A stretch of 64,000 bases of DNA from Symsagittifera roscoffensis (taxonomy: Eukaryota), in NCBI RefSeq assembly GCF_963678635.1, contig NC_087064.1:32809028-32873027 (forward strand), read 5' to 3'. A model generated the notes under the pieces. The model worked only from the letters and a program-made list of their open reading frames with translations, was not told the origin of the DNA and did not search any database. The position numbers and the translations under genes are program-made. Below are positions 10,801 to 40,335 of the stretch, piece after piece (the first letter of the stretch is position 1; each line of letters starts with the position of its first letter).

Positions 10801-11463
10801 TCTGGGAGTGCTTTTCCCGAACTATTATTACTGCGAATGTTTTTTTTTTGGTAAACTCTGGTCTTCTTTCATGTACTGATAAAAAGTTTTATTTGGTTCT
10901 TTATGTTTCTGTGGTTTTTTAAGATTATCTTGTTGTTTTTGTTTACATTCAGCGATGCTTTGTCCATATTTACGGCAATAGTTACAACATTTTTTGAATG
11001 ACGGTTTTGTTTTAAAATTTGGATTTTTCTTGTAGATATTTAGTAGTTTAGTAATTTTTTCAGCTAGTTCAATGTCGGAGTCATGAATGTTATTCATTTG
11101 TGAAGTAGTGGTATGGATTTTGTTTTCGTGTTGTAATTTTAAATTTTCTCTTTTTTCCCATTTCAGAGTGATTTCAGCTTGTCCAAACTCATCTGCTAGT
11201 TTTCGGAAATCTATATCAGGTTCTTGACTTGAAGATGGATGTGATGCTCTCTTTTTGTTGCTATTTTTGGTAATTGTGGTGTTAGAGTCATCATTAAGAT
11301 TTCTGTCATCTTTTTGTTTTTATAATCAAGCGTATTAGGAGAATATGGTTTCTTACTAATGTTTCAATTCGTACCGCAAGTTGCTTAATTGTTTCATTAG
11401 GGAGTCTACGGAGTCTAGGTTGCATAGAATTCTTTGATGTTGTTTATTTCTTTCAGTGTCGTG
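7851..11463. repeat. Tandem duplication unit 1 (3613 bp) inside the degenerate element.
   Basis: Six-frame ORFs at 7883-8080, 8111-8353, 8573-8809, 8935-9300, 9441-9908 and 10121-10327 recur at +3613 (11496-11693 and onward), some as exact duplicates and some with single substitutions or truncation. The junction gagaggtatatcatctggagggtcatg is present at 7851 and 11464. Confidence 0.9.
9582..9945. repeat. Imperfect palindrome (inverted duplication) inside the degenerate protease region. A second copy lies at about 13198-13565.
   Basis: 9657-9727 is the reverse complement of 9797-9867 around a unique 69-bp centre at 9728-9796. The plus strand (9441-9908) and minus strand (9624-9860) both encode TMEQIKL.NK.FK.TFHI.D.KTH. 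Confidence 0.75.
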
Positions 11464-14400: not shown

Positions 14401-15076
14401 CTACAAAAAATATAGTTATCTGGGAGTGCTTTTCCCGAACTATTATTACTGCGAATGTTTTTTTTTGGGTAAACTCTGGTCTTCTTTCATGTACTGATAA
14501 AAAGTTTTATTTAGTTCTTTATGTTTCTGTGGTTTTTTAAGATTATCTTGTTGTTTTTGTTTACATTCAGCGATGCTTTGTCCATATTTACGGCAATAGT
14601 TACAACATTTTTTGAATGACGGTTTTGTTTTAAAATTTGGATTTTTCTTGTAGATATTTAGTAGTTTAGTGATTTTTTTCAGCTAGTTCAATGTCGGAGT
14701 CATGAATGTTATTCATTTGTGAAGTAGTGGTATGGATTTTGTTTTCGTGTTGTAATTTTAAATTTTCTCTTTTTTCCCAATTCAGAGTGATTTCAGCTTG
14801 TCCAAATTCATCTGCTAGTTTTCGGAAATCTATATCAGGTTCTTGACTTGAAGATGGATGTGATGCTCTCTTTTTGTTGCTATTTTTGGTAATTGTGGTG
14901 TTAGAGTCATCATTAAGATTTCTGTCATCTTTTTGTTTTTATAATCAAGCGTATTAGGAGAATATGGTTTCTTACTAATGTTTCAATTCGTACCGCAAGT
15001 TGCTTAATTGTTTCATTAGGGAGTCTACGGAGTCTAGGTTGCATAGAAATTTGATGTTGTTTATTTCTTTCAGTGT
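11464..15076. repeat. Tandem duplication unit 2 (3613 bp).
   Basis: Near-identical to 7851-11463. After ...tttcagtgtcg at about 15076 the sequence continues into a gag-region homolog instead of restarting the unit. Confidence 0.9.
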
Positions 15077-16649: not shown

Positions 16650-17051
16650 TGAGTTATGACCTTTGTTCTGTACTCCTAAAAAAATTTCAGATAAGGTGCA
16701 CCGTCTGTTCCTCACACGATCTTAATTTCGGCCGGATAGATTCGTGCAACTTTTTAGTCTAATACCAATCTTAATCTTACACTTATATATCCTAGTCTCA
16801 ACAGATCTAGTGTGTAATGGTTTTCGCGAGTTAGTTTCCGGAGTTTATATAGAAGGAGAGCAACTGTAGTCTATGATTTATTCAAATTGTTCTGGTGCTG
16901 AAACTACAAGTAGTTTCAGCACTTACAAACAATTGTCAATGTTAGAGATGGAATATGATTAGTTAGTTAGTAAAATTTTATATTGATAGTTGTATCAATA
17001 ATGTTATAGTATTTATATCCAATTTTGAATACTAGTTTAGAACTGGTTCCG
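16650..17051 (-). repeat. LTR of the degenerate copy (its 5' LTR), diverged from the intact LTR.
   Basis: Reverse-complement alignment to the intact LTR: ggccggatagattcgtgcaac..., ctggtgctgaaactacaagtagtttcagcacttacaaa, and terminal ggttcc equal to reverse complement of TGGAACC. The adjacent 16622-16649 is the reverse complement of the PBS-like TGCGACCATAAGCCTCGAACAAG. Confidence 0.75.
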
Positions 17052-20903: not shown

Positions 20904-20940
20904 CTAACTTTTAAAAGTCTATGTAGGGGTGTTGGGCAGG

Positions 20941-21348
20941 TGGAACCTGATCTAAACTATATTTTATGATTGGATAAATTAAATGTTTTACCAATGTAAA
21001 GTATTTAATATTAACCAATCATGATCCATCTAACTAACAACCCACTTATTTGTAAGTGCTGAAGTTACTTGTAATTTCAGCACCAGAGAGATTTGAATTT
21101 AACTTAGAAATTAGTTGGACTCTCCCGAGCACTTCAGCAGCCGCAATAAACCAGTATACCCTAGATCTATTGAGCCTAGCAGAGACTAGTTAAACAACCT
21201 GAGACTAGATAGTATAAGAGTAAGATTAGGATCGGTATTAGACTAAGAAGTTGCACGAATCTATCCGGCCGAAAATAAGATAGCGTGACGAGCAGACGGT
21301 GTACCCTATCCGAAATTACTCTATGAGTTACACTCCAGTCCAAACTCA
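20941..21348 (+). repeat. 5' LTR (408 bp).
   Basis: Base-for-base identical, by eye, to 39499-39906. Starts TGGAACC and ends AAACTCA. Confidence 0.9.
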
Positions 21349-21350
21349 TC

Positions 21351-21373
21351 TGGTGCGACCATAAGTCTCGAAC
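21351..21373 (+). promoter_or_regulatory. Candidate primer-binding site.
   Basis: TGGTGCGACCATAAGTCTCGAAC begins 2 nt after the LTR end. TGG plus the complement of a tRNA acceptor/T-arm is the usual PBS form. The same motif is conserved next to the LTR of the degenerate copy. Confidence 0.55.
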
Positions 21374-22664: not shown

Positions 22665-23132
22665 ATGTCATTTAAAAACCTAGGGAATAAACAAACAATC
22701 GTTTTACACAATTGTGAAATAGATAACAAAAAATACGACCTTGTAATCACACCTCATACACAAACAGTTGGATACATTCGAACAAAACGACAAACACTAA
22801 AGAGAAAAATAATCACTAAACAAAGACAAATAACACGAAAAAGATTTTCAAAAAATCGAAACGCATTTTCAGAATCAGAAACCAACAGTTTAGACGAACT
22901 CTACAAACTAAAAGAATCAATAGATAAAAATTACCCACAACACGATCAATTATATTTTTCTGACTCAGAAACAACTTCAAATTCATCACAAAGAGGAAAA
23001 AGAAGAATAAAAAAGCAGTATAAACACAAACCAGTACATCTATACAACTGGAATCAACCAATTCGACACATTAATAATTACATATTAACAGTCATCGAAC
23101 GAAAAAATGAGTTCAACGCACACCCCAGGTGA
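22665..23132 (+). CDS. Leader ORF (155 aa, very basic K/R-rich) that overlaps the gag-pol start by 26 nt in another frame. Coding status is uncertain.
   Basis: ORF-track entry. The stop lies downstream of the polyprotein ATG. A-rich sequence biases toward lysine codons, so this may be spurious. Confidence 0.25.
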   Translation: MSFKNLGNKQTIVLHNCEIDNKKYDLVITPHTQTVGYIRTKRQTLKRKIITKQRQITRKRFSKNRNAFSESETNSLDELYKLKESIDKNYPQHDQLYFSDSETTSNSSQRGKRRIKKQYKHKPVHLYNWNQPIRHINNYILTVIERKNEFNAHPR

Positions 23133-26100
23133 CGAAACTCCAGATGATGATGAAATCTTTCCTTTTATAGTAGATGCAGATACTGATAGAGGACAACACA
23201 TATTTTGTCAAAATTTACTCGTAAATTTATTTGAACCCGGAATCAGTCCATGTAAAACAGAGTTCCCCGATGTAAAAATCAAAAGACAAATCATAGATCA
23301 CTATCTAAAAGATATATGCAACATAACACAACAATATGGAATCTACTCTATAGAATTCACTTCCCCAAACCATAATAATAGAACATACACTATTCAAACA
23401 GACGACCTTGATTTAGAATTTTCAAAAGTTTTTTCAGAATATATAAAAAGCATACAATACCATAACTCACAAAGAGCAAACTCCATTTTCACCAATGAAG
23501 TTTTCGCACTAATATATAGTTATATTTCGATATTAGAAAATGAACTCCCATTAACAAATGTCTCACCGACAGAAACATCTAAACATTTAAGAGTACGACA
23601 TGAAATCACACTACTCTCTAGTTATTTAAACATCATTAAAGAAAATTTCACGAAAGACGACGTTTCACAACATACCAAACACGATTTACAAAAAATTTTA
23701 GCATGGTTCATAATAGATTATTTTACACACAATATTGATTTAATTGCACAAGCAAGAAAAAATTTTAGACCCCAAAACTCGAACGATGATACAGCTATCA
23801 CAGAACAATCAGATTATGTTTGGGACCCCGAATGGTCTCATCCCGTATTTATAAACTTTCCACAATCAATCTCAAGTCAAGCAATAGGTACAATATCTTA
23901 CATAAGAGATTATGTAAGAGTAATACCATTAACAATTGATGCAACACCATTAAACTATAATACATTTTTACCCGATACACAAAATAATAGTTTAAACTCT
24001 ACAGTCATACACAATGAAAACCTCAATGGAACTAGGAATCTTACTCAACAAGATATACAGACACCATCACACTTCATAAATGAAGAAATTGTACACACAA
24101 CAACTACACAACAAAGTATTTCACCAATACGCCCAAATTTAACAACACCAAGAAATACAAATCCTTCACAAACACAGGTAACCTTACAATCAACCGTTAA
24201 ACCTTCGGTTGCCCCTAAATATTCACATATGGATTACCAAACATACAAACCCATGACAATACCATCAAAAACACGCAAAACATTCACTAGAAACAACTTT
24301 GCAGACCATAATTATAATTATACACATCCATCAAAAACAAATTATAAACCACAAAGAAATTTTAATCAATATACAAAACCTCGAAACTGGGATAACCCAA
24401 CGGCCCAATATAATTCCACAAATTTTCAACCAAATCCTCCACAGGATCGCAGTGAAAATTACCCATTTTTTCAACAAAATAAAAATAAAAAACAAACATC
24501 TTATCAAATGGATTATTTATCCTCAGATGAAGATTTCTTACAACCAGATATATTTGCACCAAATACTCAAGAATATCGTAGACAAGGAATACAGAAAACA
24601 CGTACAAACCATAGAAATTTTTCTCCACAATCAATAGATGCACAATATCAACAACCAATTCAACAACCAAATCCAATTAATATACAATCTTTTCAACCAA
24701 TTCAACAACAAAATCCAATGACTACACACTCGTATCAACCATCACAAATGCAAAATGAAATACCACTCCCGTATTATCTTCAACAACATGAAATAACAAG
24801 AAACCAACTTTCAAATTTTTCTCAAATGCCAAATGCAGCTGAATCATTACAAATGACAATGAATCCATACCTTATGGGTGGATCATCAATAACATCAAAT
24901 AAACCCTTAATGGTTTTCACAGGAACAGACCCTGAATACTCTGTAGAAGATTACTTAAATGCAGTAACAGCAAATTTAATTTTAAATATTGGACCTGAAC
25001 CAATTAACACGCCACTACATCAAAACTGGATACATCGACGCACAGCGTTGATACAAACAACCTTAGATGGCGCAGCCCAAAAATGGTTTTCAGTACTACC
25101 TCAAGAAATAAAATCAAACTGGAAAAGATTTACACAAGAATTTTCAAAAATGTTTGACTCCGAAAGAAACAAACAACAACAAAGAGTTTTATGTAATGAA
25201 ATTCGCAGATTACCAAACGAAACCATCAAGCAAATAGCAGTAAGAATCGAAACACTAGTTCGAAAAGCATATTCACTAAATACACATGACTATAAAAACA
25301 CTAAGATGACAGAAATCTTAATGATGACCTTAACACCACAATTAAGGAAAATAGCAATAAAAAAGAGAGCATCACATCCTTCTTCAATTCGAGAACCCGA
25401 TTTAGATTTTAGAAAACTAGTAGACAAACTAGAACAAGCAGAAATCACAATGAAATTAGAAGAAACGGAAAATCTGAAATTACAATACGTTAACAAAATT
25501 GAAACGACTCCCACTAATATTAATAATATACAAGAATCAGAAACAGATCTCGTTGAAAAAATCACTGAAATACTCAATATTTACGAAAAGAACCCGAACT
25601 TTAAAGGCAAACCATCTTTCAAAAAATGGTGTAATTATTGCCGACGATACGGACATAGTATTTCCGAATGTAGACAAAAACAACAAGATAGTCAAAATAA
25701 ACCTCAAAAATACAAAGAACCAAATAAATCATTTTATCAATACATGAAAAAAGATCAAAACCTACCAAACAAAAATGTATACAGCAACAACAGTTCAGGA
25801 AAACCACTCCCAAACAATACAAGCTATACAAGAAATCAATCTCCATATAACTCAAGTTATAGAGGAAGATCACCAGAACGAAGAAACACGTATAATTCAT
25901 CACAAAATCACTACAATAGACCGAATAGTCGAAATAACTACTCCAGATCAAATTCAAATACACAACGATTTGTTTCTAGATCTAATTCTCAATCAAGAAA
26001 TAACTATTATCCAAACAACCAATCACGAAATTCATCATACAATAGGAATAGAAACTACTCCTATAATCGAAATAGAAGTTATTCAAACAACCGAAACCAG

Positions 26101-29100
26101 AATTACCCGAACAATCGATCAAGGAATAACTCATATAATAGATCGAACTATAACAGACCAAACAATAATTACCAAAACAGATCACGAAATAATTCACAAA
26201 ATCGACACTCAAGTTATAATAATCGTTATAGAAATTATTCCCAATCACCACACCGGAATAATAATAACTATAATAATTCTAATAATCGCCACAGAAGTAG
26301 TACACCTAAACATCAAAGACAAATCAATCAAGTACAATCTAATCCAGAAACAACATCAGACCCTCCAGGTATTGATGACACAGTAACTGATACGTTACAA
26401 CTCAATCAAATAAACTGTACATCATCAGATTCAGAAAGTGATACTGAAAACACTCTTTCTATCAATATGATAAAAGTCGAAAATGACTATGAATCTGTCA
26501 TATATGAACAACCCTTTCCATCACACATATATGAAAATCAATCAGAATTTCTTCAAAATTATTACACTACACCCATAAATTCCACACCAACAACGCAAGA
26601 AACAAATGAGATTAACACTACAAATCAAACCAATAAAAACACCAAAACAAAATGCTTGAATACAAACCACATTTATCAAAATATACAAAAAGAACAACCC
26701 AAAGAAAAAATTTGGACAATACCATTTCTCTTAGAAAGCCCAAGAAATAAAGAATTTCAACCACCAGACCTTGAAATAGATTTTTTAATTGATTCAGGAG
26801 CAGAATCAAACATAATAAACATTCCCACATGGAATGAAATAAAAATCTTACACCCAAAGCTAACACCTCTTGAAACCTCCAGCAAACTAGCGACAGCACA
26901 AGGATCAACATTGATAAACTACGGAAAAATCCAATTATTTCTCCTCCCTACCAGAACAATGGAACAAAGTAAAATTTTAAATAAGCCATTTAAACAAATA
27001 TTCCATATCACCGATATTAAATATAATATCATTGGAATACCATTTATTTCAAAGTATATACCAACAATTAACATACTAAATAGTAAAATATTAATCAAAG
27101 ATAAATATACAAAAACAAAAGAAACATCCTTAACATTTTTTCAAAGATTGAATAAACAACCACCATTCTTTTCAAAATTTTATCCGATATTTAACCAACA
27201 AAGAAAACACCTGAAACCACTATCAGGAAACATCTATAATTTTTCAATCAAACAAGTTCACCAATATGATAAAGCACAAAACAAACAAAAATTTTATATG
27301 TCAGATTTTGAATTCAAACCGATTCATAAATTTTTCAAAATCACAATCTCTTCAATAAAATATTTGAAAAATTCGAATTCAGATATCATCTCCTTACATG
27401 TCTATAACAACACACCTTACCAAGTAACATTACCATTAGGAGTTTTAGGATATTGTGAAACCAACGCAACAATATCACCAATACACGAAAAAGCCTATCG
27501 CGTAAATAATATACTCCAATTACTAGATATTTGCCAATCTACAATTCTTAATGAAGAATTATCTATAAATAATATAATAAGTAACGAAAACAGAAATACG
27601 GATTATTTCACAAAAACTCCATATTTCAAACCTACATTCAACATCAGTAACTACACAGAGGACCAACAGAAATTTTTAACAATGTTTAATTTCCAACATT
27701 CACAAATAACACAAGACGAATTTGAAAAGTTAGCCAAACAGCTAATTCAATATTCATCAGTCTATGCAACATCAAAATTCGATGTTGGCAAAATCAGTTC
27801 ATCACTACATCTCCCATTAAAACCAGACGCAGTTTTCAAAAAACAAAGAGCAAGTAAAGTACCAATTCACTTACATGATAAAGTAAACAGATTACTCGAT
27901 ATTTTAGAGCAATACAACATTATATCACCGGTTAATAAAGAAGAACAACCAAAAGGCAACACATTCATCAACCCCGTTATCATTCTAGCTAAAGGAGAAT
28001 CGTTAAAAATCGTTCTCGATGCTAGATACCTCAATTCACTCATAGATGAATCAAAATGTAATTGGCTCATTGAACCAATACAAGTTATTTTAACAAAAAT
28101 AAACGGCAAATACTTCACAACCGCCGACATGAATAGTGCATACAATCAAATGCCACTAGATGAACAATCACGACGTTTAACACAATTTGTTATCGGAAAC
28201 CAACAATATGAATTCAACCGCATATTCTATGGAATATCCATAGGACCAGCAGCATTTTCAGCCTTTATGAGCAAAATTTTTAGACCACTAATACTCAAGA
28301 AAAACGCAATCACCTATTTAGACGATGTTTTTATGCAATCACAAACAAAAGACGAAATGTTCAAAGTTTTAGAAACATATCACCAAATACTTCAGAACGA
28401 AAATCTGAAGGCCGCCCCCGATAAATCACACTTCTTTTTGACTAGAGTTAAATTCTTAGGACATAATATAGAAAGAAAAACAATCACTCCACTGAAATCA
28501 CGCATTGACGCTATTCAAAAACTTCAACCACCAACAAATAAAAAGAAAATCCAAGAGTTCCTTGGAATGTTAAACTTTTTAAGTAAATATGTTTATAAAA
28601 TGCAATTATACCTACGACCATTTTATAACATCCTTAGACAACAAAACAACTTTGAATGGAATACAGAACATCAAACACGATTCGAAGAAATAAAGAAACT
28701 TTTAACTGAACAAATTTCAAACACAATTCCAGACCCTGATCAACCATTTTATGCAATGTGCGATGCTTCGAACTTTGGCATCGGCGCAGCATTATTACAA
28801 TCACATAATGGTACAAATAAAATGAACCTCATATCAGCAAATTCTCGATTATTCACTCAAGCAGAGCTACGACTCTCAACTCTAATGAGAGAATGTACAG
28901 CCATAATATATACACTTACAGAATATGAATTTCTGATACTTGGATCAAAACATCCCACAGTTTTGTTCACAGACCACAAACCAATCATCTTTCTTTTTAC
29001 ACAGAAATCTAACCCAAACCACCGAGTTTACAGATTTCAACTAATTCTAATGAAATTTCCAAACTTACATATAGTTTGGACTGCAGGAAAAAATCTTGCA

Positions 29101-31329
29101 TTACCAGACACCTTAAGTCGAAATACACCACCTGAATTACTTACACGAAAAACAACAGTTGAAATACCCAAAAATATAAAATTCTACCTTGCAGAAAACG
29201 AAACATCACCTCGATTAGAATGCAAATATGCAGTAAAAACTGATATTGAACAATCACAAATAAATAATTTACAACATTTCCCACTTTATTTAGATTGTCA
29301 AAATAATCATTATGAAGTTGACCTACTTGGAACATCAACTTTTAAACCAATTCCATATTCTCAATGGATAAAAAATAACACCCAACAAAAACGAACAAAA
29401 CAACACCTACCTAAAAAAGACCATTTTCCACTAATTGAAAAAGAAGATTTAACTGATAAAATAAATTTATCAGGACCACAAACAAATGATTCAAAATACA
29501 CAATAAATCAAGTTTTTGACCTTCACGACCCACTTGATACAATACCATTATCTAAATTAGAAATCGAAAACATTTTTCTCCCCCCAACAGAAACAATTAC
29601 AATTTCAACACTGAAACAATATCAAAACCTTGACCCAGTAATTCGACAACTAAAATCATGGCACAAATATAAAACTAAACCTATCAAAGCAGATTCAACC
29701 ATTCTAGGAAACAAAACACTCCTCCGATACTTTCGCAAGTTTAACAATACAACAATTAACGAAAATACAGACCTTTTAGAGTACAACCTTAATGAATCTA
29801 CAGTTCCCTGTCTCCCTATAAGTATGATTCTTATAGCTTTTAATATTTCACATACACAAAACATTAAAGGACACTCTGGATCAGAGAAAACATATTCAAA
29901 TTTTATACAAAATTTTTACTTCCCAAATGCACCAATTTGGATAAAAGTACTATGCAATGATTGTATAGTATGTCAATTAAATAAACCTTACCCAAATCAA
30001 AAACAAATAGCACAAAAACAAGATTTTAAAGGACAAAGTTTATACTTTAATCATCGTATCTCATTTGATACTAAAGGACCAATTTCACCCTCATCAGAAG
30101 GAAACTCCTACATTATGGTAATTGTTGACGCATTTACACATTATGTAGCACTTAACCCAGTACCACATTGTAACGCTTATTACGCATACACAACACTTTA
30201 TGAACACTGGATAGCAAAATTTGGACTACCAGAAATTTTAGTCACAGACAATGGTACAGAATTCATAAATAATGAAATAATAACACTATGTCATTTATAC
30301 AACATTAAACACAAACCACGTACATCTCATGCACCTTGGACAAACGGCTTAGTCGAAGGTATGAACCGTTCACTACAAGAATATCTTAGATGTATCATCA
30401 ACGGAAATGATACCAAATATACCGAATGGTCAGCAGATGTAAAATTATTTCCATTAGCATATAATTCACAAATCACGACAACTTTAGGAATGTCACCATA
30501 CGAAATGGTTTTCAACCAAAAGCCACGCAAACCAATAATGTTTACAGCAAATTCCCATAAAAACGCACAAGGTTATTGTCAACCAAATAAAGACTCAATT
30601 TGTTATAACCTACCATTACATACGCACGATGAAGATCATTTTCATCACCCACAAATCCTTAAATTAGCCTCCGGTACACACACCGAATGGATTTTAAATA
30701 GAGATAAGAAACACAATGAAATTTACCAAAAAATAACGAAAAAGTTATTACAAAGACAAAACATAAATGAACAAATCAATTCACGTTTTACACCAGCTTC
30801 CGATTTAAAAATTGGAACATTTGTTTTAATACCTAATTTTAATACTCAAAAAGGAATTTCTAAAAAATTACAACCCCTCCGAAAAGGACCCTATCAAATA
30901 ATTGCAAAACCCACAGATGTCACATATAAAATTATCGACTCAAACAAAAAAGAAATCGTTCAGCATCGAAACAACCTATTACCTTATTACCCAAAAGAAT
31001 ACGCACTCCGCGAATTAACCCAATTATATTCTTTCACAGGATTAAAAATTATTCAAAACGAACCACATCTGAAAAACACAGAACAAAATGATAACCCCAC
31101 CGAAAATCAAAACACAAAACCAATCGCTACCAAAAACAATACACAAAACCATAAAGAATCTCCAAAACAAAGAAAAAATAGAAAAATGACAGAACAAATA
31201 ATACCCCAAGAAGAAATAGACAAATCAGAACATAGAAAGACAACAAGACTCCGAAATCAACCACGTAAAAACTACAAAATGTTCATCCCCCAATCTAAAA
31301 TATTAAAGAAAGTAGAATTTAAAAATTAA
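23107..31329 (+). CDS. gag-pol polyprotein (2740 aa): N-terminal extension, gag-like, CCHC zinc knuckle, Arg/Ser/Asn-rich region, aspartic protease, RT, RNase H, integrase.
   Basis: Uninterrupted 8.2-kb ORF. Motifs CNYCRRYGHSISEC, FLIDSGAESN, TTADMNSAYNQMPLDE, YGISIGPAAFS, ITYLDDVFM, RVYRFQLILMKFPNLHIVWTAGKNLALPDTLSRN, H-x6-H-x29-C-x2-C, VIVDAF...VTDNGTEF...TNGLVEGMN, LRKGPYQI. Confidence 0.93.
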   Translation: MSSTHTPGDETPDDDEIFPFIVDADTDRGQHIFCQNLLVNLFEPGISPCKTEFPDVKIKRQIIDHYLKDICNITQQYGIYSIEFTSPNHNNRTYTIQTDDLDLEFSKVFSEYIKSIQYHNSQRANSIFTNEVFALIYSYISILENELPLTNVSPTETSKHLRVRHEITLLSSYLNIIKENFTKDDVSQHTKHDLQKILAWFIIDYFTHNIDLIAQARKNFRPQNSNDDTAITEQSDYVWDPEWSHPVFINFPQSISSQAIGTISYIRDYVRVIPLTIDATPLNYNTFLPDTQNNSLNSTVIHNENLNGTRNLTQQDIQTPSHFINEEIVHTTTTQQSISPIRPNLTTPRNTNPSQTQVTLQSTVKPSVAPKYSHMDYQTYKPMTIPSKTRKTFTRNNFADHNYNYTHPSKTNYKPQRNFNQYTKPRNWDNPTAQYNSTNFQPNPPQDRSENYPFFQQNKNKKQTSYQMDYLSSDEDFLQPDIFAPNTQEYRRQGIQKTRTNHRNFSPQSIDAQYQQPIQQPNPINIQSFQPIQQQNPMTTHSYQPSQMQNEIPLPYYLQQHEITRNQLSNFSQMPNAAESLQMTMNPYLMGGSSITSNKPLMVFTGTDPEYSVEDYLNAVTANLILNIGPEPINTPLHQNWIHRRTALIQTTLDGAAQKWFSVLPQEIKSNWKRFTQEFSKMFDSERNKQQQRVLCNEIRRLPNETIKQIAVRIETLVRKAYSLNTHDYKNTKMTEILMMTLTPQLRKIAIKKRASHPSSIREPDLDFRKLVDKLEQAEITMKLEETENLKLQYVNKIETTPTNINNIQESETDLVEKITEILNIYEKNPNFKGKPSFKKWCNYCRRYGHSISECRQKQQDSQNKPQKYKEPNKSFYQYMKKDQNLPNKNVYSNNSSGKPLPNNTSYTRNQSPYNSSYRGRSPERRNTYNSSQNHYNRPNSRNNYSRSNSNTQRFVSRSNSQSRNNYYPNNQSRNSSYNRNRNYSYNRNRSYSNNRNQNYPNNRSRNNSYNRSNYNRPNNNYQNRSRNNSQNRHSSYNNRYRNYSQSPHRNNNNYNNSNNRHRSSTPKHQRQINQVQSNPETTSDPPGIDDTVTDTLQLNQINCTSSDSESDTENTLSINMIKVENDYESVIYEQPFPSHIYENQSEFLQNYYTTPINSTPTTQETNEINTTNQTNKNTKTKCLNTNHIYQNIQKEQPKEKIWTIPFLLESPRNKEFQPPDLEIDFLIDSGAESNIINIPTWNEIKILHPKLTPLETSSKLATAQGSTLINYGKIQLFLLPTRTMEQSKILNKPFKQIFHITDIKYNIIGIPFISKYIPTINILNSKILIKDKYTKTKETSLTFFQRLNKQPPFFSKFYPIFNQQRKHLKPLSGNIYNFSIKQVHQYDKAQNKQKFYMSDFEFKPIHKFFKITISSIKYLKNSNSDIISLHVYNNTPYQVTLPLGVLGYCETNATISPIHEKAYRVNNILQLLDICQSTILNEELSINNIISNENRNTDYFTKTPYFKPTFNISNYTEDQQKFLTMFNFQHSQITQDEFEKLAKQLIQYSSVYATSKFDVGKISSSLHLPLKPDAVFKKQRASKVPIHLHDKVNRLLDILEQYNIISPVNKEEQPKGNTFINPVIILAKGESLKIVLDARYLNSLIDESKCNWLIEPIQVILTKINGKYFTTADMNSAYNQMPLDEQSRRLTQFVIGNQQYEFNRIFYGISIGPAAFSAFMSKIFRPLILKKNAITYLDDVFMQSQTKDEMFKVLETYHQILQNENLKAAPDKSHFFLTRVKFLGHNIERKTITPLKSRIDAIQKLQPPTNKKKIQEFLGMLNFLSKYVYKMQLYLRPFYNILRQQNNFEWNTEHQTRFEEIKKLLTEQISNTIPDPDQPFYAMCDASNFGIGAALLQSHNGTNKMNLISANSRLFTQAELRLSTLMRECTAIIYTLTEYEFLILGSKHPTVLFTDHKPIIFLFTQKSNPNHRVYRFQLILMKFPNLHIVWTAGKNLALPDTLSRNTPPELLTRKTTVEIPKNIKFYLAENETSPRLECKYAVKTDIEQSQINNLQHFPLYLDCQNNHYEVDLLGTSTFKPIPYSQWIKNNTQQKRTKQHLPKKDHFPLIEKEDLTDKINLSGPQTNDSKYTINQVFDLHDPLDTIPLSKLEIENIFLPPTETITISTLKQYQNLDPVIRQLKSWHKYKTKPIKADSTILGNKTLLRYFRKFNNTTINENTDLLEYNLNESTVPCLPISMILIAFNISHTQNIKGHSGSEKTYSNFIQNFYFPNAPIWIKVLCNDCIVCQLNKPYPNQKQIAQKQDFKGQSLYFNHRISFDTKGPISPSSEGNSYIMVIVDAFTHYVALNPVPHCNAYYAYTTLYEHWIAKFGLPEILVTDNGTEFINNEIITLCHLYNIKHKPRTSHAPWTNGLVEGMNRSLQEYLRCIINGNDTKYTEWSADVKLFPLAYNSQITTTLGMSPYEMVFNQKPRKPIMFTANSHKNAQGYCQPNKDSICYNLPLHTHDEDHFHHPQILKLASGTHTEWILNRDKKHNEIYQKITKKLLQRQNINEQINSRFTPASDLKIGTFVLIPNFNTQKGISKKLQPLRKGPYQIIAKPTDVTYKIIDSNKKEIVQHRNNLLPYYPKEYALRELTQLYSFTGLKIIQNEPHLKNTEQNDNPTENQNTKPIATKNNTQNHKESPKQRKNRKMTEQIIPQEEIDKSEHRKTTRLRNQPRKNYKMFIPQSKILKKVEFKN
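25630..25671 (+). other. Nucleocapsid CCHC zinc knuckle (C-x2-C-x4-H-x4-C).
   Basis: tgt aat tat tgc cga cga tac gga cat agt att tcc gaa tgt, in frame. Confidence 0.85.
25800..26330 (+). other. Arg/Ser/Asn/Tyr-rich low-complexity domain (RS-like) between the NC and protease.
   Basis: About 175 residues of repeated SRNNYS / NRNRSYS / NRSRNNSYNR motifs. Confidence 0.8.
26740..27080 (+). other. Aspartic protease domain.
   Basis: IDFLIDSGAESNIINIPTW, with DSG at 26791-26799. The matching segment exists in the degenerate copy. Confidence 0.8.
27810..29130 (+). other. Reverse transcriptase plus RNase H.
   Basis: RT motifs A through E, with YLDD at 28324-28335. RNase H CDASNFGIGAALLQ then TDHKPI, and the linker ending NLALPDTLSRN at 29124. 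Confidence 0.85.
29800..30950 (+). other. Integrase: HHCC zinc finger, DDE core and GPY/F-like C-terminus.
   Basis: HTQNIKGH...CNDCIVCQ, D(VIVDAF)...D(VTDNGTEF)...E(LVEGMN), and LRKGPYQIIAKPTDVTYKI. Confidence 0.85.
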
Positions 31330-31929: not shown

Positions 31930-32345
31930 ATGCTTTTCTCTCAAACAGTCGCTCAAATATTTATCAATTTTAAACATTTTTTTTCAATACTTCAAGTCTT
32001 TATAATCTTTCTTTTTGATATCATCGAATCTTTTCTAATAATCATAATAATTTTTTGTAACATTTTTTTAATTTTCTACACAATAATTGAACTATTCCTC
32101 CAACTTTCCAAAACCCTTGAATATATCCACAGGTACGATTTTAACAACTTGTCTAAATGATACGAACAATTTTCAGTAGAACTGATATTTTTTTATTGTT
32201 TGTAATTTTCATAACATTTCTATCATCCCTCATTTTGACAATATGTAAATGTATAAAGAAAGCAATCATTACATTTGCCCTAGCAACAATTTTTCTAATT
32301 CTTTTTTTAGAAGAATATTATAATAAACATAAACCCTCTCACTAA
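31930..32345 (+). CDS. Two short, very hydrophobic ORFs (76 and 62 aa) joined by an ATGA stop-start overlap at 32157. Coding status is uncertain.
   Basis: ORFs 31930-32160 and 32157-32345. T-rich sequence could create them by chance. Confidence 0.2.
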
Positions 32346-32350
32346 AGTAA

Positions 32351-33488
32351 CAATTTAAAAATCCATCAAAAATTGCTACCCAACAGTCACAGAATCAGTC
32401 TTCACCGACATCATCCCAAGATAATCCAACACCACCTTCAACTACTCAAAACCCTCAAACATCTACACGAATTTCTTTTCAAGACAATCCATACACCTTT
32501 GAAGAAAGGCACGCTCGTTTATCTGAACCACTAGAACCAGTTCAACGACAAGCATCCCTAAGTGAACCAACATATAATCTTTACCCAACACTACCACAAG
32601 AACTAAGTAGAATACGAAACCTTAGTCAAAACCAAAACACAGCAGAAATAAATAGACAAATTATACATCCTCGACGAAATAGAAATTTTCAAACTCCCCG
32701 AGTTCATTTTGATATACCTCAATCCCCAACACAAACCACTCCAGAAAACACCACTGGTATCACACCAGAAACTCCTACACTTTTTTCACAACGAAGCACT
32801 TCAAGTCTACCTTCAGACTACTTAGGTTCAACACCAACATCTGAACAGATACGTGAAAATCCCTTTAACCCCCCAAACCTAACATCACGACTGCCATATT
32901 GGACTACAAATTCATTCACACAAGGTGAACCAAATTTAGTCAATGACCCCATAGATATTTCTACGGATACAACAACATCCTCATCACTACCAGAAACATT
33001 ATCACTACCATCAACACCATCAATAAGTCAATTTTCACCACTACCCTTTAACTTAAATTTTCCAAATAATCTCGACGCCAGATATCGAGAACAATCATCA
33101 ATAAATATTCCTTTAAGATTAGATTGGAATACATTCACAGCACCTCCACCACTATTTGGACAACATCAAGAAAGTAACCGCCTTCATAACTGGGCACTTA
33201 ATAGATTACAATATCGCCAAGATATTCACAACGATATCCGTGATCACAATATTCAAATACTCCAACAAAACAGTTTACAATTAAAATTTGAAATCACAGT
33301 TAAGTTAAATAATATTACCCAACATCCCTACCCATTAAATCCACCTAACATAACAGCTCAATCACTACCACCACCGTTTATAACTACTGAAGTAATATAC
33401 AAATACGACAGATACACTAAAAACACAATTGGTTACATTACATTTTATAATCCATACTCAGGATTATCATACACATGTATATTCTAAA
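32351..33488 (+). CDS. ORFx: open reading frame of 378 codons with no in-frame ATG. N-terminus is S/T/P/Q-rich.
   Basis: Stop at 32348-32350, then no stop until taa at 33486-33488, in AT-rich DNA where stops are expected about every 15-20 codons. The C-terminal part is conserved at protein level in the degenerate copy (ORF 4402-4680). It overlaps the env-like ATG (33475) by 14 nt. Confidence 0.6.
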
Positions 33489-36093
33489 ATTATTAATTTT
33501 TCTCCAAACCCTTTTTCTAATAACCTCAAATCAAAATATAAACCCTTCCCCTCGTACAGGACCACAAGATTTATTAGTAACACATTACGATTGCGAAGAA
33601 AATGAACAAAAAACACTACATAAATATGCAATCAATCAGGTATCACAATGTGAAACAGAACCACAAGCTATAGAAACCACAGATATAATAGCAACACTCT
33701 ATTCAAAAGCCCGAGCAACAACAGTTACAGGTTATAAATTCACAGCAACATTTTCCGAAAAGAAAGTACATTGTTCACAAGTCTCGAACGGAAACAAAAA
33801 CCGACTTGACCATGAATCATTCTACCAAAGTAATATAGAACGTCTTTTACATCTCAATCCCGACGATTGTAAAAATGAATTACTTAGACTAAACATCACA
33901 AAAAATAAAAACTCCCAAAGAAAATTAGTTAATTTTCAAGTTTTTTCAGACTCTGTACATCAATCACAACTTGAAAGACACCAAGGACATATAAGACTAG
34001 ACGAAAAATACCCGTATAACGGCGCACACGGACGATTAACCTATGACCTACATGATAAACACTGGATACCACACATTGGTATAAATAACCCATCAAACTG
34101 CAAAGCAGACACAAAAAATAAAGGATACCAAGAAATAATGTTTTTCGATTGGAAAATACAACTCGAAAAAATACAACTCACACGAGATTTATCTGATAAT
34201 ACAATGATCTATCAAGGAATCCGACTACCTTGTAAAAATGATCAAGGATATTGCGACCCTACAACGAGAACACAAGCAACAATTGTTTGGTTCCCCGAAG
34301 ACACATGTACAACATTTCAAGTAGCAAAAATACACGCTCGTATGATAAAATTTCACGAAAAATATTTCATACAATCAATTCCATATGAACAAGTCCATCC
34401 ATCACGCAAACTAAGTTCCGATTTTCGAAACATAGACAATATAGAAAATAAATTGACACGTTTTCAAATATATCAAGAAACAGAACTTGCATGTAAATAC
34501 AGGAATCCACTTCACAGAACACAATACTCTGAAATATTAGTTGAATATGAAAAAGGATTCGACATGACCACTGGTAAAGTAAAAATCGACCCATACGCCA
34601 CAGGTCATCCTCTAAACGAAGGAACATCCTATATACCAGTTAATTTTGAAAAAAGCAACGGACAACCTGGTGGACATCTAAAACCTTATGACACCAGAAG
34701 CACACGCTTACAAGAATTATCACTAATGAATACTACATATTTTGGTAATATCCACTATGATATTCATTTGGATATGAAACTAGACTATACAATTAGCCGC
34801 ATTTTTCAAGAAATGTCACTCTCTGAATTAGAAACACTACATCAACTATGCGAATTAGAACGAACACAAATACTACAATCACTTGCACTAGCAGTATTAA
34901 AAATACCCTACGCAGGATACTTATTATCAGGAAATAGATCAAATTTTTTAGACTACGAAGGAAACATCTTATGGTTTTATACTTGTACTAAAAAAGTATC
35001 ACCACTATACGTTTTTGAAGATAAACGATGTTATAAAAGAATTCCTATCTTTTATAAGAATAAAGTACATTTCGTGGATACACTTTCACGAAGAACATAT
35101 TTCTGGGATACCGCAGTCCCATGTGGATCAGAAAATAGCCACAATGTAGTACAACTAAACCCTGATGAAAACAAATATTATCTTCTCACTCCATATCCCA
35201 CATTAATGCAATCACTCAAAAAATTTTCACCAGAAAGCATTCGCGCTATTGCTCGAAACCCAAATATAGACTTACAATCAATAGGAATCTATTCAAAATC
35301 AGATATTCAACATCACATTAGAACACAACAATTCCAAGAATTATTAACACAAATGGACACTATACAAAGACAATCAATAGACCAAAACTTACGCAAACTT
35401 GCAGAAACCGCAGGATTTGCCGATATCTACACGCAAGACTATAGCGGATATTTTAAAGACATAAAAGATTATATATATCTAAACGGCGAAAAATACCGTC
35501 CCCAAGATATATCACCAATTAACATTTTTAGCTTTGTTACACTCAAAAATGAGATCCTAGATTTTCTAGGATGGCCCTACTACATCTTAGAAAAATTGAC
35601 TATTTTATACGCAATGTTTAACTTTATTGGATTTCTTTTCTCACTCTTAAAAGGAATCTACAATACATGTGCTATACACACACAAGTAAACAGACAAGCA
35701 AGCGTAGCACGCATACTCTTTGCAGGATTTTTTGGAATTTTTTCCACATCTATAAACAAAATTCTTTTAGACGCACAAATAAAAGAATATAACACAAAAA
35801 TAACAACACGACAAAATACATACGACGAAGAACATAACAATGTCGACACACAGCCAACGGCACCACAATTACCACCCCTACCAAATAACCATCCACTATC
35901 CCTAGCCCCGCGAAATTTTAGAAATTTAGCAATCACACATAATCCAAATTTTCGACTCACCACATCACAAAGTCCCGTCCAACATATAATGACACATCCA
36001 TCACAAGATGATAATACTTATGAACAAATTATTGAACAGCCCCATACCACCGCTTTTCAATCTCAAAATAATAATTTTTTTAGCCCACGATGA
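33475..36093 (+). CDS. env-like glycoprotein candidate (872 aa): N-terminal signal peptide, Cys-rich ectodomain, C-terminal hydrophobic anchor.
   Basis: MYILKLLIFLQTLFLITSNQN is a signal-like start. Many Cys and N-x-S/T sites. Hydrophobic segments LTILYAMFNFIGFLFSLLKGIY and ARILFAGFFGIFSTSI near the C-terminus. Homologous fragments are in the degenerate copy. Confidence 0.75.
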   Translation: MYILKLLIFLQTLFLITSNQNINPSPRTGPQDLLVTHYDCEENEQKTLHKYAINQVSQCETEPQAIETTDIIATLYSKARATTVTGYKFTATFSEKKVHCSQVSNGNKNRLDHESFYQSNIERLLHLNPDDCKNELLRLNITKNKNSQRKLVNFQVFSDSVHQSQLERHQGHIRLDEKYPYNGAHGRLTYDLHDKHWIPHIGINNPSNCKADTKNKGYQEIMFFDWKIQLEKIQLTRDLSDNTMIYQGIRLPCKNDQGYCDPTTRTQATIVWFPEDTCTTFQVAKIHARMIKFHEKYFIQSIPYEQVHPSRKLSSDFRNIDNIENKLTRFQIYQETELACKYRNPLHRTQYSEILVEYEKGFDMTTGKVKIDPYATGHPLNEGTSYIPVNFEKSNGQPGGHLKPYDTRSTRLQELSLMNTTYFGNIHYDIHLDMKLDYTISRIFQEMSLSELETLHQLCELERTQILQSLALAVLKIPYAGYLLSGNRSNFLDYEGNILWFYTCTKKVSPLYVFEDKRCYKRIPIFYKNKVHFVDTLSRRTYFWDTAVPCGSENSHNVVQLNPDENKYYLLTPYPTLMQSLKKFSPESIRAIARNPNIDLQSIGIYSKSDIQHHIRTQQFQELLTQMDTIQRQSIDQNLRKLAETAGFADIYTQDYSGYFKDIKDYIYLNGEKYRPQDISPINIFSFVTLKNEILDFLGWPYYILEKLTILYAMFNFIGFLFSLLKGIYNTCAIHTQVNRQASVARILFAGFFGIFSTSINKILLDAQIKEYNTKITTRQNTYDEEHNNVDTQPTAPQLPPLPNNHPLSLAPRNFRNLAITHNPNFRLTTSQSPVQHIMTHPSQDDNTYEQIIEQPHTTAFQSQNNNFFSPR

Positions 36094-37883
36094 GCCGCCA
36101 ACTTGGATCACTCCATCGATCAAATTCCCATCCAACCAACCTTACCTCTTCAATCCCAATAATACCACTTTTTGCTTTTCCGCCACCCGATTTTCCATCT
36201 AGCAATGTAACATCAGGCATGAATTCCGACACTAACTCACAAATTTCAGTTTTATACTCCATTTCACAGCTAAATAACCCGAATATTGAAACCCCCGACG
36301 AATTTGCCGACTCAGAACCATCTCCATCCAATAATTTTCATAACCCTTCTCATTTTTCTCAACCTCCTTTTCAACCCATATTATCAAATAACCCTGACCC
36401 AATCACTCCTACACCCTCTTATGCTTCCCAAGTTACCCCAACCTACTCCTCATACCATTCTGACCAATCATCTCCAGACACCCCCCGAATCTCCCCAGAG
36501 CTAGACAATTTTATTACCCTCCAACAACAACCCTACCACCTTAACACCCCGACCATAAACCAAATCTCCTCCACTACAAATTCATCCAATCCCCCTACAC
36601 CCTCTTCAAATTATACCGAATCATTAGCACCATCATCCACATCAACTGAATCCTCACTCAACACTAATAGAGCTTATCGCACTTTTAAAAGAAAGTTCCC
36701 CAACCATCCTTTCCCAGCAAAACCAGGAACAGCCCGAGAATACATCAACCACCCCCAACATACTAACACTAGAGAATTTTTAGCCATCACTTTACCCTCA
36801 TTTCCACAATACACCTTAAACACCCCTCATGACGCTAACGAAACACGCAACTTTGTAGACGAATACGTTTTAATGCCCACTCTCTCTTGGACCTCATACT
36901 ATCATTTCACTAACCCTCTTTGCTTACCTTTAACTAACACATCCATTGATATAGACCGAAACAAAGACATGCTATATCGACTAACTACACCACTCACCGC
37001 TAGACAATTTACTTACGTTGGATATAAAAAATCACTAAAAATACACACTGCACCTAGAGCTAACGAATACACACTAGAATACTATGATCACAACATCATC
37101 AGAGCTAACCAAGATCAATTCTTAGACGACGATCGCTTCGCTAACCCACAAATCACCGAGAAATTTTTCATCAATACACCATATGTATTTACACTAAACA
37201 TCTTCGACCGAAAGTTTGATCACATTATTTCAGAAGCACTAACAAGCACACAAGCGTACGAAAGTTTTAAAGAACGCTTCCAAATCTTTTCACTAACCTT
37301 TCATTTCCTTGCACCACACGAAAGAGATTTACACTGCTCACACGATATTATGTTGCGAACTAAACAAACACATACATACAGTTACTATCGTTTCATCCAA
37401 AATCACTTTGACCTCCACACACCCTCTAGACAACCACACCATCGCTTTCAATTCATCAATTCAAAATACACTTCACCGTATTTCCTAAATTTCACATATT
37501 GTATTAAAAATACTAACCTTCATGGTATTCTTCGTAATTATGACCCCATAACCCAAATGTATATTTTCTGCCCCATCACCAAGACCTTCAACGCAGAAGA
37601 ATCCCGACCCTTCCTTATCCCGCACGAGTTTGTACAGCCTATAGAAATCCCCATTTTAGAATTCATCCACAACACTAAATTTAACCACAAGTTATATAAC
37701 TTAATCCAAAACACACCTTATGAGTTTGCAGTAGGCACTGAAGAACTAACCACTATTAAGGCACTTCAATTGCTTTGGCCACTACTTCAAACTAAAAATA
37801 TCATCCGCATCTTAGCTAAACTACTAACAACTTCAGAACTAATTCACAATATCTTCCCCCACGGTTTTTTCCCCGACGACTAA
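36090..37883 (+). CDS. ORF3 (597 aa), unknown function. Pro/Ser/Thr-rich N-terminal half and a structured C-terminal half.
   Basis: Its ATG overlaps the env-like stop (cgATGAgc at 36090-36093). It is conserved in the degenerate copy (822-1495, minus strand). No recognisable motif. Confidence 0.7.
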   Translation: MSRQLGSLHRSNSHPTNLTSSIPIIPLFAFPPPDFPSSNVTSGMNSDTNSQISVLYSISQLNNPNIETPDEFADSEPSPSNNFHNPSHFSQPPFQPILSNNPDPITPTPSYASQVTPTYSSYHSDQSSPDTPRISPELDNFITLQQQPYHLNTPTINQISSTTNSSNPPTPSSNYTESLAPSSTSTESSLNTNRAYRTFKRKFPNHPFPAKPGTAREYINHPQHTNTREFLAITLPSFPQYTLNTPHDANETRNFVDEYVLMPTLSWTSYYHFTNPLCLPLTNTSIDIDRNKDMLYRLTTPLTARQFTYVGYKKSLKIHTAPRANEYTLEYYDHNIIRANQDQFLDDDRFANPQITEKFFINTPYVFTLNIFDRKFDHIISEALTSTQAYESFKERFQIFSLTFHFLAPHERDLHCSHDIMLRTKQTHTYSYYRFIQNHFDLHTPSRQPHHRFQFINSKYTSPYFLNFTYCIKNTNLHGILRNYDPITQMYIFCPITKTFNAEESRPFLIPHEFVQPIEIPILEFIHNTKFNHKLYNLIQNTPYEFAVGTEELTTIKALQLLWPLLQTKNIIRILAKLLTTSELIHNIFPHGFFPDD

Positions 37884-37889
37884 CAGGTA

Positions 37890-37965
37890 AGTATGAACTA
37901 AATGAATATTACTAACTAATTAAAATATTGAAAAACTCACCATTCCTTATTCATGTTTTCTTTAG
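37890..37965 (+). other. Intron-like signal immediately after the ORF3 stop: consensus donor, TACTAAC branch point, pyrimidine tract and AG.
   Basis: gactaaCAG|GTAAGTATg ... atTACTAACtaat ... ttcatgttttctttAG|att. Confidence 0.3.
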
Positions 37966-39498
37966 ATTTTTAGCCTTCATCTTCAATCATCTGAAAAATT
38001 CACAAAAGAAAAATAAAAAATAGCAAACTTCTTCAAAACTATTTAAAACCCTATTTAACTTTTGCACCAACAATTAAATAAATATAATACCAATGCAGTA
38101 AATTAATTTATAAAATTTTCCCCTAAAAGCAGTAAATCTACATATGATGAAAATTTGTATCTTAAAATTCCCCCATTACTAGCAGTAAATTTCCAAATTC
38201 TATGCAGTAAATTAATAAAATGCAATTGCAGTACTAACCTTTTGATATTTTCATTCATTCGCACAGAAATTCTATCCACACTCGCACAGCTCGCCCACGA
38301 AGAATTGTTTAAAATAATGAATTTCAGTTTCAAGTTTTCACACTCAACAACTCTAACAAATAATAACAAGTTTCAAACTTTCCTTTAACCCGGTTGGAAA
38401 GGAATCATATACTAAACAAAACTAACCAACGCAGCTTACTAAATACCACAAATCATAAAATAACAGCATGACTAAGAAAAGGAAACCAACGGTACCCAAA
38501 CCGGATTAACCCAGTTTAAAACTGGATAATTTATTCTTTTGAAGACTATTACAAAGTCTTAGAAAGAAATAATAAAACACAAAAAAGTCAAAAGACAAAC
38601 CCATACCACAAACAATTTGCTTTTTGGAAAAAGTACATAACCAACAAAACATAAGTAAAACCACAACAAACCCAACATAAAATGTTGTCACATAACAGGA
38701 CCCCTCATAAAAACCGCATGAAATCATACTCCCACACCTGGCCTAACCCACCAGGAAAGGACGTCCTGAGCATGCTCTATAGCCGGCCTAACCCACCGTG
38801 CTACATCCACGCTTTGTGACCACACCTTTATTTTTAATAAGAGCTACTCAAGGGTGAGTAACTCTTCAAAATAACCGAACTAAAACAAAAAGCTTTTGTG
38901 AAAACAACTAACTAAAATCATAATTAAAAAATATTAAATTAATAAAAGTTTTATAAAATGTAAAATCACATGATGCAATATATAGATCAGAATACAACAC
39001 CAAGGACGAACATCAAAAGACAAGACGACCTCACTACACTCGAGAGAGAATGACCAACTATAATCGATATGCCGCTCACAATCACAACTCAAAGGATTTA
39101 GAGTACGACTTGACCTCGCAGAAAAGGACTTCATTGAACTAGACCAATGACCACCTCGATGTTCAAGTATACGTACAGATCCGAGTAACCAGGCATCCCC
39201 TCCACGCACAATCTCCACGCCATTCCCGAGCTAGATCAAACACAAAAGAAGTTCTCTCCGAAGAACAGAAAAACCTGACATAGCCAACCATTCTGAAACC
39301 AGAATTGATGCTGTTGCAGAGACTCAGTCGTTGTCACAAGAAGAACACAACGTCTTGTGTCCTCAATTCCAGATCCCTGGAACTTCCTTAACAAAAAGGA
39401 AACAAAAGAAAAATGATGTTCGCCAAATACCAACGTCCATCATCCATCCTTGAACTACAAAAGAACTGTTCTAAAAAACTCTGTAAAACCCGGATGGG

Positions 39499-39906
39499 TG
39501 GAACCTGATCTAAACTATATTTTATGATTGGATAAATTAAATGTTTTACCAATGTAAAGTATTTAATATTAACCAATCATGATCCATCTAACTAACAACC
39601 CACTTATTTGTAAGTGCTGAAGTTACTTGTAATTTCAGCACCAGAGAGATTTGAATTTAACTTAGAAATTAGTTGGACTCTCCCGAGCACTTCAGCAGCC
39701 GCAATAAACCAGTATACCCTAGATCTATTGAGCCTAGCAGAGACTAGTTAAACAACCTGAGACTAGATAGTATAAGAGTAAGATTAGGATCGGTATTAGA
39801 CTAAGAAGTTGCACGAATCTATCCGGCCGAAAATAAGATAGCGTGACGAGCAGACGGTGTACCCTATCCGAAATTACTCTATGAGTTACACTCCAGTCCA
39901 AACTCA
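39499..39906 (+). repeat. 3' LTR (408 bp).
   Basis: Identical to 20941-21348. Preceded by a weak purine tract cccGGATGGG. Confidence 0.9.
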
Positions 39907-40335
39907 CAGGGGTGGATCTAGGATTTTCTCGAGGGGGGGGGGCGATTTTTCAAAAATTTTCGAAATTTTTGTCGACCTTTTTTTTTTAGGTCGACCCGAA
40001 TTGATTTTCCGAGCTCTCCCAAAGCACTAAAAAGACCCTGTTTTAGTCAAATTTTCTGCGCCGCAGGCATTTTTTTGGAAAACAGGCCAAAAAAAAGGCG
40101 TTTTTAGTCACTTTTTAAAAAATTTTGACCAAAAAAAATGCGTTTTTTTGGCGCTCGCTCCCCCCTTAGAGTAAGTATATATTGGCGCCTAAGGCGCCTT
40201 TAGAAAATTTTTAGGGTCCGTCACCAAATATGGATATCTTAAAATAGTACAAAGGGGGGACCCTTTGGGTCGGCAGGGGGCCGAATCCCTGAGGGAGGGG
40301 GAGGGGAGCGTCCGCCCCCCCTAAATCCGCCCCTG
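39907..40335 (-). mobile_element. hAT-like MITE copy B (429 bp). It is the target of the retroelement insertion.
   Basis: Begins CAGGGGTGGATCTAGGATTTTCTCGAG and ends CCCTAAATCCGCCCCTG, the reverse complement of copy A's organisation. The 5' flank at 20937-20940 (CAGG) equals the first 4 bases of this MITE. Confidence 0.8.

Follow-up and report, generated by a model that had tools for sequence, protein, structure and literature searches.

What is a retroelement doing with a long open reading frame (ORF) behind its envelope gene? The genome of the acoel Symsagittifera roscoffensis, of which 61% is repeats and about half is long terminal repeat (LTR) retrotransposons (PMC9911081), raises this question in a stretch of 64,000 nucleotides (contig NC_087064.1, positions 32,809,028 to 32,873,027; hereafter the window, whose own numbering is used throughout). 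Within the window lies an LTR retroelement of 18,966 bp that encloses both env and, directly downstream of it, a frame that we refer to as ORF3. A reading of the DNA without database searches (the sequence-only reading) had singled out ORF3 as a frame that is large, intact and conserved and that an LTR retroelement carries 3' of env, and this description stood: the frame encodes 597 amino acids and is present across related lineages of the element. Here we argue that ORF3 is very probably functional, an accessory gene of the element's own. The element is a young, highly amplified and complex env-bearing endogenous retrovirus-like element of the Ty3/gypsy type; hundreds of its copies are intact, and its family looks to be active at present. 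An accessory gene of the retroviral type is an ORF beyond gag, pol and env that is held by purifying selection in its element lineage, and ORF3 is such a frame.

ORF3 Is Retained Beside env in Related Elements

Ten copies picked solely because their env protein is identical to that of the window formed an unbiased sample, in which ORF3 is an intact frame of 597 amino acids in every copy and gag-pol is full-length (2740 amino acids) in only five. A search of a protein database clustered at 90% returned 594 ORF3 matches, the best 120 of which are all full length (597-599 amino acids), 98-100% identical, and spread over approximately 226 contigs. The sequence-only reading had considered that most genomic copies might carry stop codons; neither the ten env-picked copies nor the full-length variants, which thus number at least 120, bear this out. 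A second family (P0393, 8 cluster members) encodes an intact ORF3 of 598 amino acids that is 69% identical to that of the window. At one locus of this 69%-identical family (L026:10001-11797; contig ctg23814l of European Nucleotide Archive [ENA] assembly ERZ25878734) ORF3 is an intact frame of 598 amino acids beside pol and env in several pieces, a combination that is not statistically unusual (rough expectation, P about 0.15-0.25).

The position of ORF3 is equally stable, and in all related lineages examined it is the same. An older lineage (L007) retains the order pol-env-ORF3 at identities of approximately 41% for ORF3, 47% for env and 51% for pol, and in divergent, decayed lineages (approximately 41%) ORF3 still directly follows env. 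The window holds a further example in an older, rearranged sister element that runs on the minus strand from approximately position 17,000 to the start of the window, and whose ORF3 homologue is interrupted by frameshifts and in-frame stops and lacks the first ~125 codons. The sequence-only reading had recognized this degenerate copy, correctly as regards its homology to ORF3, and had assigned it to 822-1495, when its actual span is 466-1817.

A scan of 1.84 billion representative proteins yielded 379 ORF3-related clusters, of which 150 were listed. Among these best 150 of 379, full-length proteins occur in ORF3's own family only, and the other clusters are fragments of at most 375 amino acids. 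Every cluster that was looked up, approximately 12 of the 150, came from S. roscoffensis contigs, other acoel genomes lying outside the search; at the approximately 12 loci inspected env lies upstream of the ORF3 homologue, and no host-gene homologue of ORF3 was found there outside a retroelement context. Two ENA assemblies, ERZ25071366 and ERZ25878734, hold ORF3 homologues; because they encode the same ULK4-like protein and share an allelic locus, they are assemblies of one species. The ULK4-like gene adjoins one element copy; its product matches the S. roscoffensis protein at NCBI with 100% identity and the Convolutriloba macropyga protein with 81% identity.

Purifying Selection Acts on ORF3

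Selection was assessed at several evolutionary depths. Among the young copies of the env-picked sample, ORF3 variants comprise 4 nonsynonymous vs. 10 synonymous changes, over 1391 vs. 400 sites (binomial p=1.3e-4), and p is still <0.01 with the assumed nonsynonymous fraction cut to 0.65. Between the window and the second intact family, compared over full-length codons, the proportions of nonsynonymous (pN) and synonymous (pS) differences in ORF3 are 0.174 and 0.663, corresponding to a ratio of nonsynonymous to synonymous divergence (dN/dS) of about 0.12; the same comparison gives 0.091 and 0.538 for env (dN/dS about 0.10) and 0.084 and 0.578 for gag-pol (dN/dS about 0.08). At the protein level ORF3 has therefore evolved approximately twice as fast as env and pol, yet it is clearly constrained, and unevenly so: the last third of the protein (amino acids 401-597) is the most constrained (pN 0.079), with pN rising to 0.235 in amino acids 1-195. 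Against the older lineage, L007, ORF3 shows a pN of 0.27-0.37 vs. a saturated pS of approximately 0.7.

In each of these comparisons, nonsynonymous divergence falls far short of synonymous divergence. ORF3 is thus no chance product: purifying selection acts on it about as strongly as on env and pol. ORF3 is a real gene, specific to the element and selected, and it has accompanied env and pol as the element group diversified.

The env/ORF3 Junction and Possible Routes of Expression

The start codon of ORF3 overlaps the env stop codon in the tetranucleotide ATGA. A 15-nucleotide segment at this junction, AGCCCACGATGAGCC, is identical in six lineages and differs by one base in a seventh, and all seven lineages share the ATGA overlap, an A at position -3, and a pyrimidine-rich tract ending in an AG that lies 8 nucleotides before the AUG. 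Much of this conservation is explained by dual coding. The tract and its AG (at 36082-36083) together form a candidate 3' splice or trans-splice acceptor.

These features would be consistent with production of the ORF3 protein from its own conserved AUG, by one of two routes. We lean, tentatively, toward a subgenomic mRNA spliced at the T-tract-AG 8 nucleotides upstream, either in cis or to a host spliced leader; in the latter case the leader, GCCTAATTGTTGTGATAAACTTATTAAATAGA, would be joined to position 36084, just past the AG. Trans-splicing is common in this host, with 30% of S. roscoffensis genes being trans-spliced (PMC9911081). Possible, if doubtful, is a structure-independent termination-reinitiation at the AUGA, by which ribosomes finishing env would go on to translate ORF3.

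Features of the ORF3 Protein

The N-terminal 200 amino acids of ORF3 are rich in serine (20%), proline (14.5%), asparagine (10.5%) and threonine (10.5%), in part because the coding strand is A/C-rich and G-poor, and AlphaFold predicts no secondary structure in them. The sequence-only reading had described this part of the protein as disordered and rich in proline, serine and threonine. The composition and the lack of predicted structure agree with that description, which is only partly right because the region contains some of the best-conserved motifs of the protein (MSRQxGSLHRSxSHP, PLFAFPPP and ETPDEFAxSEPSPS) and is thus not featureless. The conserved blocks of the C-terminal region are FKRKFPNHP, YDHNI, ERDLHCSH, NSKYTSPYFLNF, LRNYDPI and a predicted leucine-rich C-terminal helix. 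No signal peptide and no transmembrane segment were detected (maximum 19-residue hydropathy 1.13), and the product is predicted to be soluble. IMG/VR and the JGI metagenome contigs hold no relatives of ORF3. An origin of ORF3 as a paralogue of gag-pol, or of a frame upstream of env that we term ORFx, was considered and rejected, there being no similarity to either.

On these grounds, the best reading of the protein is that of a lineage-specific intracellular accessory protein. Within this reading we favor, with low confidence, a more particular role, in which ORF3 would act inside the cell as an adaptor or regulator during those stages of the life cycle that depend on env: the short N-terminal motifs (RSxSxP, the proline-rich patch and the acidic Ser/Pro cluster) would engage host factors, and the constrained C-terminal domain would bind a component of the element, be it Gag, the Env tail or RNA.

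Anatomy of the Element and Further Coding Regions

The coordinates of the element and of related features are collected in Table 1. The two LTRs are 408 nucleotides each and 100% identical (BLAST 20939-21348 vs. 39497-39906, 410 nucleotides aligned). In the gag-pol ORF, Pfam matches fall to Retrotrans_gag (amino acids 648-734), RVT_1 (1665-1788), RT_RNaseH (1876-1984), Integrase_H2C2 (2244-2294) and rve (2315-2406); this order of gag, reverse transcriptase (RT), RNase H and integrase (IN) is the Ty3/gypsy (Metaviridae-type) arrangement. No Pfam match to a protease was found in the ORF. Some 640 amino acids without annotation precede the capsid-like domain, and a long low-complexity tract rich in asparagine, serine, arginine and tyrosine (amino acids ~880-1070) follows the zinc knuckle. 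A leader ORF of 155 amino acids (22665-23132, plus strand) overlaps the gag ATG by 26 nucleotides; it has no Pfam match and no counterpart in the sister element.

The env product matches the fusion glycoprotein family PF24664 at E=3.9e-11, above the gathering score, and may adopt a class III fold. It has a signal-like N-terminal segment and hydrophobic C-terminal (transmembrane) segments at amino acids ~707-728 and ~747. Its cytoplasmic tail (35800-36093, plus strand) keeps DDTYEQIIEQPH, which includes the YxxPhi sorting signal YEQI, and a terminal SPR across lineages. A PTAP motif at amino acid ~794 is present in the window copy and is not kept in the sister copy.

Table 1. Features of the window relevant to ORF3 and its element.
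Feature	Position	Strand	Description or basis
Decayed ORF3 homologue in sister element	466-1817	-	52-69% amino acid identity, C-terminal part
5' target-site duplication	20937-20940	+	CAGG; same 4 nucleotides at 39907-39910, other flank
5' LTR	20941-21348	+	TG...CA ends, AATAAA at 21145; BLAST and ends read directly
Putative tRNA primer binding site	21351-21368	+	TGGTGCGACC...; TGG start, 2 nucleotides past 5' LTR
Fused gag-pol ORF	23107-31329	+	2740 amino acids; Pfam domains in order
sORFa	31930-32160	+	Small hydrophobic ORF, 76 amino acids
sORFb	32157-32345	+	Small hydrophobic ORF, 62 amino acids, two transmembrane-like helices
ORFx	32351-33487	+	378-codon open frame without ATG, GTG or TTG
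env	33475-36093	+	872 amino acids, fusion glycoprotein; Pfam PF24664 Monjiviricetes_fusion
env/ORF3 junction	36074-36096	+	T-tract and AG, A at -3, ATGA stop/start overlap
ORF3	36090-37883	+	597 amino acids; ATG at 36090, TAA at 37881-37883; directly 3' of env
ORF3 N-terminal S/P/T/N-rich region (amino acids 1-195)	36090-36674	+	Composition, conservation
ORF3 C-terminal region (amino acids 196-597)	36675-37880	+	Conservation map
Non-coding 3' region	37884-39498	+	Before 3' LTR; all open frames shorter than 100 codons
3' LTR	39499-39906	+	Pairs with 5' LTR

ORF3 is an extra gene, as the sequence-only reading had it, but is not the only one: the apparent spacer of approximately 2.1 kb between pol and env is coding, and holds three further conserved ORFs (sORFa, sORFb and ORFx). 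The first two are joined through an ATGA overlap of their own, and the sORFb protein is 57-67% conserved in the sister copy and L007. A splice-donor-like sequence, CAG|GTACGA, is conserved near the end of sORFa. ORFx ends 12 nucleotides past the env ATG, creating a 12-nucleotide overlap with env, and its 378 codons compare with a maximum of 181 codons among 500 shuffles. Against L007 and the sister copy its pN is 0.25-0.32 vs. a pS of 0.64-0.67; no Pfam match was obtained. Since ORFx lacks an AUG, its expression must be non-standard, and at its 5' end the conserved TCAAAATTGCTA contains an AUU flanked by A at -3 and G at +4. ORFx is probably a further gene, to judge from these features, and would be expressed via splicing or non-AUG initiation. 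A -1 frameshift that fuses sORFb with ORFx was ruled out by the order of stop codons. The element, in which at least six coding regions follow closely on one another, qualifies as a "complex" retroelement, and this packing implies non-standard expression by splicing or coupled translation.

The coding strands of both the window element and the sister element are strongly asymmetric, with a GC skew of -0.3 to -0.54 and G at only ~8-11%. This G-poor asymmetry accounts for proteins rich in proline, threonine, serine, asparagine and glutamine, and makes ATG, TAG and TGA rare. The sister element also contains a tandem duplication of a gag-pol region of ~3.6 kb (7851-14973, minus strand; copies 97-100% identical, spacing 3613-3619 bp) and internal inverted repeats at 9552-9986. 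Scanning the window for Rfam families and tRNAs gave no hits. At the window edge, an ORF on the minus strand (63336-63947) has a Sec63 Brl domain (Pfam E=2e-10) and probably belongs, as an exon, to a Brr2/Sec63-like gene of the host.

Weighing the Explanations for ORF3

Several observations weigh against the view that ORF3 is a functional accessory gene, or at least against what can be said of its expression and fold. Given the identical LTRs, intact ORFs are expected even without selection, and the case for function therefore rests on dN/dS. At the junction, the last env codons show no variation at their free synonymous positions; given a background of ~29%, the significance of this is only weak. 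Neither a UGGGA (TGGGA) of the kind found in termination upstream ribosomal binding sites (TURBS), sought within 150 nucleotides upstream of the AUGA in six lineages, nor a conserved RNA structure upstream of the AUGA (RNAalifold -2.0 kcal/mol, no covariation) was found; both results weaken reinitiation, and together they leave a calicivirus-type reinitiation element unsupported. The protein itself, in which the sequence-only reading had rightly recognized no motif, gave no hits in Pfam, PHROGs or PDB when searched as a single sequence, its C-terminal domain profile has no match in PDB, and a Pfam search of 55 ORF3-homologous fragments at E up to 10 gave no family common to more than two members. 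AlphaFold2 modeling returned a predicted local distance difference test (pLDDT) score of 48.1 and a predicted template modeling (pTM) score of 0.28 for the full-length protein (129 sequences), and 49.6 and 0.25, respectively, for amino acids 251-597 (62 sequences). The two models disagree on secondary structure, and fold searches with them gave noise. With both models of low confidence, the structured C-terminal half proposed in the sequence-only reading could not be shown. Readings of short motifs, such as RSxSxP as a 14-3-3-type site, are only pattern matches.

What else, then, might ORF3 be? The youth of the family, together with a coding strand whose low G content lengthens random open frames, would suit a captured host-gene fragment or a chance frame without selected function. 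This reading is essentially excluded: pN is far below pS everywhere, including between full-length intact copies, and the 4:10 ratio in young copies points the same way; many lineages retain the start codon and the N-terminal motifs; and, among the matches listed, no full-length homologue exists outside the element. The sequence-only reading had itself raised the matter of a host fragment without selection, to which the lack of a host homologue among the loci inspected and a dN/dS of about 0.12 are the answer. A viral source is a further possibility, in that env matches a Monjiviricetes family, ORF3 directly follows env, and chuvirus genomes have N after G; ORF3 could on this basis have been captured together with env from a Monjiviricetes-type negative-strand RNA virus, as a diverged viral gene such as a nucleoprotein. 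We regard this as highly improbable, for no viral match emerged among the 1.84 billion representative proteins (with the same approximately 12 of 150 listed sources looked up, all S. roscoffensis), nor any in Pfam, IMG/VR or BFVD, the BFVD test being weak owing to the poor model.

Other explanations accept that ORF3 is functional and differ on what it does. It is unlikely, although the arrangement of the genes would suit it, that ORF3 is a structural partner of Env, acting as a matrix- or tegument-like link between the Gag core and the Env cytoplasmic tail or as a peripheral virion protein for the fusogen. ORF3 adjoins env and would be translationally linked to it via the ATGA overlap, has co-diverged with env in all lineages seen, and is predicted to be soluble, and the Env tail is conserved, including its YxxPhi motif. 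Set against this are the lack of similarity to any matrix or tegument protein, the fact that class III fusogens such as rhabdovirus G and baculovirus GP64 work alone, and the very large N-terminal extension of Gag, which could already fill the role. That ORF3 regulates the element's own gene expression, as an analogue of Rev/Tat/Tas or of the caulimovirus transactivator/viroplasmin (TAV), is very unlikely. Such a regulator would find a use in an element with at least six packed ORFs, two ATGA overlaps, a 12-nucleotide ORFx/env overlap and an AUG-less ORFx that needs non-standard expression; caulimovirus TAV drives reinitiation on a polycistronic RNA with ATGA-type overlaps. Moreover, no gene of the element lies further 3' than ORF3, a position that regulatory genes occupy in complex retroviruses, and ORF3 has a basic KRK patch and the predicted leucine-rich C-terminal helix. 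However, the profile of the TAV family, Cauli_VI, matches neither ORF3 nor any of the 55 fragments homologous to it (E up to 10), no other regulator family is matched, ORF3 is at 597 amino acids far larger than Rev or Tat, and it has no RNA-binding or zinc-finger signature, so that the case is purely positional. A broader proposal, which we hold to be quite unlikely, is that the element represents an undescribed Xenacoelomorpha lineage of complex, possibly infectious Metaviridae-like retroviruses that would express sORFa, sORFb, ORFx and ORF3 from RNA that is polycistronic or undergoes multiple (trans-)splicing, with ORF3 as an expression regulator of new fold (a Rev/TAV analogue) or an antagonist of the host PIWI-interacting RNA (piRNA) defense.

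Comparison with Known Systems

Env-carrying Ty3/gypsy elements with a gB-type (class III) env are known across metazoans as "ancient errantiviruses" (Chary and Hayashi, eLife 2026, PMC13524379). The window element shares with these the Ty3/gypsy-type RT-RNaseH-IN, the GAG-POL-ENV order and an env that matches a viral fusion-glycoprotein family, as well as many copies of >98% identity that indicate recent activity. Unlike them, it is 19 kb long and adds to gag, pol and env no fewer than four conserved ORFs (sORFa, sORFb, ORFx and ORF3); the survey mentions neither Xenacoelomorpha or acoels nor a conserved ORF downstream of env (PMC13524379). Bdelloid rotifer LTR retrotransposons likewise carry extra ORFs, including small transmembrane ones (Rodriguez, Kenefick and Arkhipova, 2017, PMC5408684), and are thus a precedent for an invertebrate LTR element with ORFs beyond gag and pol, some of them small and with transmembrane domains. 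The bdelloid frame also called "ORF3" sits in the env position and encodes a GDSL esterase, a DEDDy exonuclease or env (PMC5408684), whereas ORF3 of the window follows env and has no recognizable domain. As an orphan under clear selection, without detectable relatives or a predictable fold, ORF3 of the window is a defined target for asking what such an element needs besides Gag, Pol and Env.

Coupling through overlapping stop and start codons is known from the calicivirus TURBS, from the UAAUG of SART1 and of Cryphonectria hypovirus 1 (CHV1), and from the polycistronic RNA of caulimoviruses. The window element resembles these systems in having an AUGA at env/ORF3, in seven lineages, and a second one at sORFa/sORFb. 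It differs from them in that the overlap comes without UGGGA or conserved upstream structure, the upstream ORF is 872 codons long, and the T-tract-AG offers an alternative route. ORF3 is also a test case for the expression of a downstream cistron in a trans-splicing animal.

Complex vertebrate retroviruses typically have genes 3' of env, including tas/bet of foamy viruses, pX of human T-lymphotropic virus (HTLV) and nef of human immunodeficiency virus (HIV). ORF3 has no sequence or structural relationship to these genes, its element is Metaviridae-like and not a member of the Retroviridae, and its expression from a spliced mRNA is here a proposal. In common with them, ORF3 lies 3' of env, overlaps its end, is a lineage-specific orphan, and is maintained by selection. 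Invertebrate env-bearing Ty3/gypsy elements can therefore be "complex" in the sense applied to vertebrate retroviruses, carrying several selected accessory genes.

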